Below, piece after piece: positions 18,001 to 21,000 of a stretch of 64,000 bases of DNA. This stretch comes from Escherichia coli. GTDB lineage: Bacteria; Pseudomonadota; Gammaproteobacteria; Enterobacterales; Enterobacteriaceae. The position numbers are program-made. Location of the stretch: assembly GCF_003334785.1 (NCBI RefSeq), contig NZ_QOWV01000002.1, one strand, 5' to 3'. How positions within the stretch are numbered: position 1 is the stretch's first letter; every line of letters starts with the position of its first letter.

Positions 18001-21000
18001 CGTTGCTGCTGGCGGCGATTTTGCCTGTCTCCGCACCGTTCAAATTTGCTCTGTTGGTCGTCGGGCGTTTGATTCTTGGCTTTGGTGAAAGCCAGTTACT
18101 GACAGGCGCTCTGACCTGGGGACTAGGCATCGTAGGGCCAAAACACTCTGGCAAAGTGATGTCATGGAACGGAATGGCGATTTACGGTGCCCTCGCTGTT
18201 GGTGCTCCGCTTGGCCTGTTGATTCATAGCCATTACGGTTTTGCCGCACTGGCGATCACCACAATGGTATTACCCGTACTGGCGTGGGCCTGTAACGGCA
18301 CAGTGCGCAAAGTACCGGCCCTGGCGGGAGAACGTCCATCGCTGTGGAGCGTTGTCGGGCTTATCTGGAAACCAGGGTTAGGTCTGGCACTACAAGGCGT
18401 TGGTTTTGCTGTTATCGGGACTTTCGTTTCGCTCTACTTTGCCAGCAAAGGATGGGCGATGGCGGGCTTTACTCTTACCGCGTTTGGCGGCGCATTTGTC
18501 GTGATGCGCGTCATGTTTGGCTGGATGCCGGACCGTTTTGGCGGCGTGAAAGTGGCGATTGTCTCTCTGCTTGTAGAAACGGTGGGCTTGTTGCTGCTCT
18601 GGCAAGCCCCAGGTGAATGGGTCGCATTAGCGGGCGCGGCGTTAACCGGAGCCGGATGTTCGCTTATCTTTCCTGCGCTGGGCGTGGAGGTGGTTAAACG
18701 CGTCCCCTCACAAGTTCGCGGCACCGCACTGGGCGGTTACGCCGCGTTTCAGGATATCGCCCTCGGCGTCTCCGGGCCGCTGGCGGGAATGCTGGCGACC
18801 ACGTTTGGTTACTCTTCGGTATTTCTTGCCGGGGCGATCTCTGCGGTGCTGGGTATTATTGTCACGATACTGTCATTTCGTCGGGGTTAACGAACCAGCC
18901 AGACCAGCATCAGGATAATCGCGACTAACAGTATCCACAGCGCGGGACGCGTTGCCATATTTTGCAACGTGTCCATCATCGGTGGAAAAGGATTAAGCAG
19001 CGGTTGCATAACACGCGGATCAATCCCTTTAACCCGCCGTTGATAAAGCTGATTAAGAATATCCTCGGCCTGGGCAGAAGAAAGCGATGATTGCGCAGAA
19101 AGACCATATTTTTGCTGGATATATGCCGATAACGCCGCCAGTTCACTGGCATCTAAAGGTTGTTTTAGCGTCATCTGTAGTGATTCCAGCGTCGGCGTAT
19201 TTTGCTGGCTTAGCGTCTGACGCGCCTGTAGCCAGGTCACCAGATGGTTAAACAGTTTCGCTGGAATTAACTCGCCATCTTTCACCCCGGAAAGTTCCAG
19301 CATCGATTGCCAGATCTGTTTGCTGGGTTCCCCCGTTGCCGCCGCAAGTTTGGTCACCAGCTGTTTTAGCGCATTGTGCTCCGCCGGTAATAAAGGACGG
19401 TCGGTCGCCTCGCGCTGCTGTGGTTGCGGAATAACCATCTTCCCTTCCTGCAACAGGGTGAGAATGGTTTTTAATTGCTCCGGTGAGAGCTGATTCAGCG
19501 GCGTCTGACCAAAGTTATGACGGATATAATCCGTGACCGCCTGACGATTATTCCCCAGACGTAAATACTCCCCTAATTGCGCTAAAAGCTGGCGGGCAGA
19601 ATGGCTTTTTTGCGCGGCCAGCAGACGTTGCGCCAGATTATGCTCAGCGGCAGGGAAGTGACGCGAAAGCAGCGGTGAATCTCCCGACAGACCAATATCG
19701 TGCCTGATACCCGCCCACAGTTCTGCTCTTTGCTGTTGCGTCAGTGAGGTCACTTTCGTCATTAAGCTTTCCAGCGAAGTACGTTGCTGACTGGATAAAG
19801 GCTGATTGCCCGTGCCAGACGGCAGATTATCTCCCTGACCTGGTGGTTGCCCAGGAGGAGGGCCGGAAATAGGTTGTATCATTACGTATCCTTATACCTG
19901 AAATCTTCGCAAGTATGCCTGGCCGCGAGATTATGGCACACTTGTCCGGTTAACTCTCGTCTCATACAGGTAACACAAACGTGAAAATCCTTGTTGATGA
20001 AAATATGCCTTATGCCCGCGACTTATTTAGCCGTTTGGGTGAGGTGACCGCGGTTCCCGGGCGTCCAATCCCCGTCGCTCAACTGGCAGACGCGGATGCG
20101 CTGATGGTGCGTTCGGTCACGAAAGTGAATGAATCTTTGCTGGCAGGAAAACCCATTAAATTTGTTGGCACTGCCACTGCGGGGACCGACCATGTCGATG
20201 AAGCATGGTTGAAGCAGGCGGGAATTGGTTTTTCCGCTGCACCTGGCTGTAATGCGATTGCGGTGGTGGAATATGTTTTCTCCTCCCTGCTGATGCTTGC
20301 CGAACGCGATGGATTTTCACTGTACGACCGTACGGTGGGGATCGTGGGCGTTGGTAACGTTGGACGTCGATTGCAGGCGCGACTGGAAGCGTTAGGGATT
20401 AAAACCTTACTTTGCGATCCGCCTCGCGCCGACCGTGGGGATGAGGGTGATTTCCGCTCGCTGGATGAGTTAGTCCAGCGCGCGGATATTCTGACTTTCC
20501 ATACGCCACTCTTTAAAGATGGTCCGTACAAAACGCTACATCTGGCGGATGAAAAACTGATCCGTAGCCTGAAGCCCGGAGCGATTCTGATTAACGCCTG
20601 CCGTGGCGCAGTCGTCGATAATACTGCGTTGCTGACCTGCCTGAATGAAGGCCAGAAGTTAAGCGTAGTGCTGGATGTCTGGGAAGGCGAACCGGAACTC
20701 AACGTCGAGCTGCTGAAAAAAGTGGATATCGGCACGCCGCATATCGCAGGCTATACCCTGGAAGGTAAAGCACGCGGTACTACGCAAGTGTTTGAAGCTT
20801 ATAGCAAGTTTATTGGGCATGAACAGCACGTTGCGCTGGATACATTACTGCCTGCGCCAGAGTTTGGTCGCATTACGCTGCATGGCCCGCTCGATCAACC
20901 GACGCTGAAAAGGCTGGTGCATTTGGTGTATGATGTGCGCCGCGATGACGCACCGCTGCGTAAAGTCGCCGGGATACCGGGTGAGTTCGATAAACTGCGC

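Follow-up and report, generated by a model that had tools for sequence, protein, structure and literature searches.

The yfcJ-flk junction

In the window, by which we mean the whole 64-kb stretch of Escherichia coli DNA that was analyzed, the convergent genes yfcJ and flk meet tail to tail and their stop codons interlock within a single tetramer. The features at the junction are listed below, and both coding sequences (CDSs) are taken from the six-frame open reading frame (ORF) list.

17712 to 18890, plus strand: yfcJ CDS, 392 amino acids, with its stop codon TAA at 18888-18890.
18887 to 19882, minus strand: flk CDS, 331 amino acids, coding for the flagella biosynthesis regulator Flk.
18887 to 18889, minus strand: flk stop codon, TAA by reverse complement.
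18887 to 18890, no strand: TTAA tetramer holding both stop codons, a 4-nucleotide (nt) tail-to-tail overlap of the YTAR class.

The sequence at the junction is ...cgtcggggTTAAcgaacc..., with the tetramer flanked as ...CGTCGGGG-TTAA-CGAACC...; 2 nt are common to both stop codons and the CDS intervals overlap by 4 nt. The yfcJ product is an MFS transporter, called an 'arabinose transporter' in some RefSeq records, and it matches the NCBIfam subfamily model NF009048 with 702.8 bits against a cut-off of 364. Flk matches the equivalog model NF007987 with 505 bits against a cut-off of 353, and both proteins align essentially end to end with their models. The Flk C-terminus is a hydrophobic stretch, ...ALWILLVAIILMLVWLVR, ending one residue before the stop.

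The chromosome of E. coli strain H3 (NZ_CP028732) is 100% identical over the query, and RefSeq annotates it with the identical 4-nt overlap. The RefSeq annotation of K-12 MG1655 also has a 4-nt overlap, between flk (b2321, 2437950..2438945, plus strand) and yfcJ (b2322, 2438942..2440120, minus strand). The sequence-only reading had proposed that the two stops overlap in a palindromic TTAA, that there is no intergenic room for a terminator, and that each transcript must enter the partner gene. The first proposal is confirmed by the sequence, the ORFs, and both RefSeq annotations, and the second by the 4-nt overlap of the CDSs; the third follows from the geometry, because there is no intergenic DNA between the stops and RNA polymerase arriving from either side must enter the partner CDS. 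Elsewhere in the window, the fimbrial gene yfcV (about 2186-2749, plus strand, converted from positions 3367059-3367622 of the strain H3 record) is a RefSeq pseudogene with an internal stop in strain H3.

The arrangement belongs to the YTAR class of convergent stop-stop overlaps: the genes lie on opposite strands with their 3' ends facing, both stops sit inside one [T/C]TA[A/G] tetramer, and the stops are the true protein ends, as judged across about 66 species and 5424 of 5426 complete E. coli genomes (see below). Enumeration of the feasible overlap lengths, with 1 and 2 nt excluded by hand, shows that the three stop codons do not permit convergent overlaps of 1, 2, 3, or 5 nt and that the minimum is 4 nt, the YTAR form. 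The 4-nt sequences CTAA, TTAA, CTAG, and TTAG have been identified as the cause of the jump at length 4 among convergent overlap lengths, and 58 convergent overlaps were counted in E. coli (Lillo and Krakauer 2007, PMC2174442). From the tables of that study we calculate that about 36% of convergent overlaps in 58 prokaryotes are shorter than 5 nt and so of the YTAR type, taking the Table 2 total of 1890 overlaps minus the Table 3 total of 1218 (at least 5 nt). The window has six convergent pairs, and flk-yfcJ is the only overlapping one; the other five are separated by gaps of 32, 47, 58, 70, and 120 nt. The yfcJ-flk overlap is real, yet it is a member of a frequent class.

Conservation of the overlap

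The junction is nearly invariant within the species. A 60-mer spanning it occurs at 95% identity or more in 5424/5426 complete genomes of E. coli. Five variants, the most divergent ones, were inspected, and all keep the identical annotated 4-nt overlap. The E. coli O103 strain RM8385 (locus L087) has CTAA in place of TTAA; the flk stop becomes TAG, the last yfcJ codon changes synonymously from GGT to GGC, and the overlap is unchanged.

For a wider comparison, an alignment of Flk homologues was used to fetch 80 loci, one genome per species, in each of which both stops were located. A convergent yfcJ, scored within roughly 3 kb beyond flk, is present in 66 of the 80; no yfcJ was seen in the DNA fetched for the other 14, some of which come from contigs that end there. 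An overlap of exactly 4 nt is found in 30 of the 66 loci, namely all six Escherichia, both Salmonella, nearly all of the Citrobacter sampled, Yokenella, Intestinirhabdus, and three unplaced Enterobacteriaceae. Spacers of 18 to 93 nt separate the genes in 22 loci (from Enterobacter, Lelliottia, Leclercia, Huaxiibacter, Pseudocitrobacter, Cedecea, and Buttiauxella), the intergenic distance is 340 to 2325 nt in the remaining 14, and no overlap length other than 4 nt was seen among the 66. Conservation in relatives, which the sequence-only reading had put forward as a check, is thus confirmed for 30 of 66 species, the others carrying spacers. This cross-species comparison is what our analysis adds to the work of Lillo and Krakauer (2007): 30 of 66 species keep the yfcJ-flk overlap, and all four permitted tetramers are used.

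Tetramer use among the 30 species is TTAA in 15, CTAA in 7, TTAG in 6, and CTAG in 2. Across these species and the inspected E. coli variants, position 1 varies between T and C and position 4 between A and G, and the TA core is constant. Only 2 of the 12 possible single-base changes to TTAA preserve both stops, and both are seen in nature. The computed consequence of stop loss is an extension of YfcJ by 50 residues, or of Flk by 25 residues following its hydrophobic C-terminal segment. Because the tetramer drifts among all four permitted forms, purifying selection on the two stops appears to be enough to account for the conservation, and selection for the overlap itself would not be required.

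It is extremely improbable that the overlap is an annotation or sequencing artefact, in which one protein would really end elsewhere than at its annotated stop. We found no evidence for this reading, and several lines argue against it: the near-universal E. coli 60-mer, the annotated ends kept in the five divergent variants, the essentially end-to-end NCBIfam matches, and the protein C-termini, which are conserved across genera in about 66 species (...FWLV[ASV] in Flk and ...FR[RK]x in YfcJ) and end at homologous residues with or without a spacer. A different true stop arising through sequencing error, which the sequence-only reading had named as grounds for abandoning the overlap, is excluded by the same evidence.

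Origin of the overlap and content of the spacers

The end points of Flk and YfcJ are the same with and without a spacer, and we reject stop loss followed by C-terminal extension as the origin of the overlap because of this. The difference between overlapping and separated genes instead reflects the absence or presence of a spacer. A neighbor-joining tree of PdxB plus Flk places the overlap on both main branches and does not settle the ancestral state; mechanistically, the change could have come about through a deletion between two TA dinucleotides or through an insertion that re-formed both stops.

The spacers are varied in content. In Enterobacter, Lelliottia, and Leclercia they are filled by REP/BIME-type palindromes (GCC[C/G]GGTGGCG...CCGGGCCTAC pairs), and an 18-nt spacer remnant is present in one Enterobacter metagenome-assembled genome (L043). 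Pseudocitrobacter, Buttiauxella, and others have plain hairpins, and two junctions carry whole inserted genes.

About 4006 to 4100 in each locus: REP/BIME spacers of L031-L040, L045, L059, L061, L072, and L074.
4038 to 6326 of L016 (Citrobacter amalonaticus S646): inserted genes for a PTS EIIC component and a GntR-family regulator.
4043 to 5566 of L064 (Kosakonia): inserted gene for a GH1 6-phospho-beta-glucosidase.

Bidirectional intrinsic terminators and REP/BIME elements thus occupy the same junction position in related genera, whereas the E. coli junction has no spacer and hence no such element. We note that one of the enterobacterial flk-yfcJ loci (L051) comes from CACSKA010000009.1, a record titled Chryseobacterium sp. 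18061; it agrees with 'Citrobacter sp. 18056' (L054) at the junction and in the C-termini of the proteins, and the assembly is probably mislabelled or contaminated.

Sequence beyond the two stops

Transcripts that pass the stops were considered on each strand, and the following features lie in their paths.

18945 to 18974, plus strand: 11-bp hairpin, GGACGCGUUGC-CAUAUUUU-GCAACGUGUCC, -19.5 kcal/mol, inside flk.
18392 to 18886, minus strand: stretch antisense to yfcJ into which the flk transcript extends at its 3' end; C-rich, G-poor, and untranslated.

The plus-strand hairpin begins 55 nt past the yfcJ stop, is formed by perfect or G-U pairs, and lies within the flk codons for DTLQNMATRP. No U-tract follows its stem (AUCAUCGG), and the local fold z-score of the yfcJ 3' extension is -1.44, which is not significant. 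In other Escherichia the equivalent hairpin has folding energies of -5 to -14 kcal/mol and is degraded in E. albertii and the cryptic clades; among the 30 overlap-bearing species examined, no equivalent is present in Citrobacter or Salmonella. As a conserved terminator it is rejected, being specific to E. coli and without a U-tract, although it could protect the yfcJ 3' end. The C/G ratio of the yfcJ-side extension is about 1.0 to 1.3, which fits Rho loading less well than the flk side does.

On the minus strand, a terminator scan finds no terminator-like hairpin beyond the flk stop, and the fold z-score is -0.12, again not significant. The C/G ratio of the flk 3' extension is 1.35 to 2.0 in most 78-nt windows, with a background 90th percentile of 1.5, and the base composition makes it plausible that this is a zone of Rho loading and termination. 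Terminator scans and RNA folds on both strands reveal no A-tract/hairpin/T-tract arrangement near the junction, which is not a bidirectional intrinsic terminator of the kind found between convergent genes, and an Rfam scan of 17000-20500 at a permissive threshold returned nothing at the junction. No conserved terminator was found past either stop, so the partner gene must contain the end of each transcript. The published termination data of Adams et al. (2021, PMC7815308) list no Rho region beyond either stop, their curated Term-seq 3' ends include none on flk or on the strand antisense to it, and flk has no entry in any of the four supplement files.

Transcription entering yfcJ

The 5' side of yfcJ bears on how often the junction is approached from the plus strand, and has two features of interest.

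17457 to 17549: REP element and hairpin terminator at the end of fabB, in the fabB-yfcJ spacer.
17765 to 17790, plus strand: terminator-like hairpin and T-run (CCGCATCGCTTTTGCGG then TTTTTCTCAC), inside yfcJ codons 18-27.

The REP-like palindrome in the fabB-yfcJ spacer has a weak Rfam REP/naRNA4 match (31.9 bits, below the gathering threshold). The hairpin that follows it, AAAAGGGAACC-TGAT-GGTTCCCTTTTT, is flanked by an A-tract and a T-tract; it is probably the fabB terminator and possibly acts in both directions.

Within yfcJ, the stretch that follows the CCGCATCGCTTTTGCGG hairpin reads TTTTTCTC. The one Rho termination region that Adams et al. (2021, PMC7815308) place in this neighborhood has its peak at K-12 position 2440043 on the minus strand (Rho score 5.8, p = 4e-12); upon conversion of coordinates this is at about 17789 in the window, some 77 nt into yfcJ, and coincides with the 17765-17790 hairpin, a candidate site of premature termination or attenuation at the 5' end of yfcJ. 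Without bicyclomycin, their DirectRNA-seq data from LB count 236 reads in the 800 nt upstream and 15 in the 800 nt downstream; with the drug these counts become 266 and 98, respectively. Most of the upstream signal probably comes from fabB, and coverage of the yfcJ body, at 15 reads per 800 nt, rises 6.5-fold with bicyclomycin. The body of yfcJ is barely transcribed in LB and is Rho-limited, and few polymerases reach the junction from the yfcJ side in this medium because of the Rho-dependent drop about 77 nt into the gene.

Transcript overlap in published surveys

Complementary 3' ends have been reported for 276 of 370 convergent operons in K-12, with a mean overlap of 286 nt, and such overlap occurs whether or not a spacer separates the genes (Conway et al. 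2014, PMC4161252). Transcript overlap is thus the norm in E. coli whatever the spacing. By its geometry, the yfcJ-flk junction imposes a transcript overlap of 4 nt or more once both genes are transcribed, and the pair is among 165 convergent excludons called in at least 50% of 58 MG1655 RNA-seq data sets (ExcludonFinder 2025, PMC12288877); the same list also includes the pairs yfcH-rpnB and smrB-yfcO from the window.

Like other convergent excludons (PMC12288877) and operons with overlapping 3' ends (PMC4161252), flk and yfcJ are opposite-strand neighbors whose 3' ends overlap. Most excludons overlap in their 3' untranslated regions, with a mean intergenic distance of 95 nt, whereas flk and yfcJ overlap in the CDSs themselves. 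The hallmark of an excludon is mutually exclusive expression through interference or RNase III; what is published for flk-yfcJ is its listing for transcript overlap. Of the potential for convergent interference or antisense RNA raised by the sequence-only reading, the transcript overlap has a published listing (PMC12288877), and nothing shows regulation. Nor is the broader suggestion upheld that the junction is noteworthy or regulatory, as it belongs to a common class and transcript overlap is the norm in K-12.

Discussion

The yfcJ-flk junction is very probably an ordinary tail-to-tail overlap, of minimal length, between two genuine genes that are unrelated in function, and nothing in the analysis shows that it regulates anything. 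We propose that the spacer present in other Enterobacteriaceae is missing at the E. coli junction, such that the stops interlock as a YTAR tetramer, and that the overlap, once formed, would persist through purifying selection on each stop. Each transcript would extend into the partner gene by some tens to hundreds of nucleotides before ending. On the flk side, the sequence composition suggests that termination is most likely Rho-dependent and diffuse, acting on the C-rich, untranslated RNA that runs antisense to yfcJ; for yfcJ, the 3' end would most likely be set by Rho or by decay, possibly back to the E. coli-specific hairpin. The RNAs are predicted to be complementary over a short stretch at their 3' ends, like those of most convergent operons in E. 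coli, and the physiological effect of the overlap is probably negligible. Counting against this reading is the fixation of the overlap across Escherichia, Salmonella, and nearly all of the Citrobacter sampled; counting against the proposed termination routes, the tables of Adams et al. (2021) list neither a 3' end nor a Rho region for flk.

That same conservation can be taken to favor a functional convergent excludon, in which a terminator-less junction is selected and transcription of one gene represses the other through collision or RNase III, which would couple Flk, a flagellar checkpoint protein, with the sugar-efflux transporter YfcJ. The listing of the pair among the 165 convergent excludons, and the higher synteny of excludon pairs as a class compared with other neighboring pairs, are consistent with such a role, but the listing is almost automatic for overlapping CDSs once both genes are expressed, and p19 validation of double-stranded RNA was reported as not feasible for convergent excludons (ExcludonFinder 2025, PMC12288877). 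Stop-codon selection alone accounts for the conservation, with all four tetramers in use, and in many related genera the junction has accommodated REP elements, hairpins, or entire sugar-utilization genes. Flk and YfcJ are moreover without a known functional link, and the transcription of yfcJ in LB is very low and Rho-limited near the 5' end. We consider a functional excludon unlikely, and the more specific proposal of a selected YTAR excludon that connects carbohydrate status with the FlgM-secretion checkpoint exerted by Flk, and thereby with the expression of flagellar genes, very unlikely; nothing that we found points to an excludon link between the transporter and the flagellar checkpoint. 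Were it true, yfcJ transcription would lower flk mRNA or the reverse, providing one modest link between a transporter and a flagellar checkpoint.

It is also quite unlikely that the 18945-18974 hairpin is a hidden intrinsic terminator, ending yfcJ transcripts or acting bidirectionally within flk, which would make the overlap a compact yet conventional termination module. The hairpin is stable and well placed downstream of the yfcJ stop, and there are precedents: rho-independent terminators are predicted within the partner CDS for about 20% of the genes that take part in E. coli convergent overlaps (PMC2174442), and 146 of the 165 convergent excludons have 'overlapping terminators' predicted by TransTermHP. 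However, the stem lacks a U-tract, the local fold is unexceptional, the hairpin is not conserved in the other Escherichia, Citrobacter, and Salmonella that carry the overlap, and the curated Term-seq set places no 3' end on either strand of flk (PMC7815308).

The ordinary tail-to-tail overlap that we favor is not a new arrangement. The class was described in 2007, with a geometry identical to that at yfcJ-flk and no structural difference (Lillo and Krakauer 2007, PMC2174442), the reference annotation contains the overlap itself, and a published catalogue of transcript overlaps includes the pair. The lack of an intergenic terminator is nothing exceptional in E. coli; complementary 3' ends are produced by most convergent operons of the species. 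The yfcJ-flk junction matters little beyond this, as a clean example of interlocked stops holding a gene junction in place.
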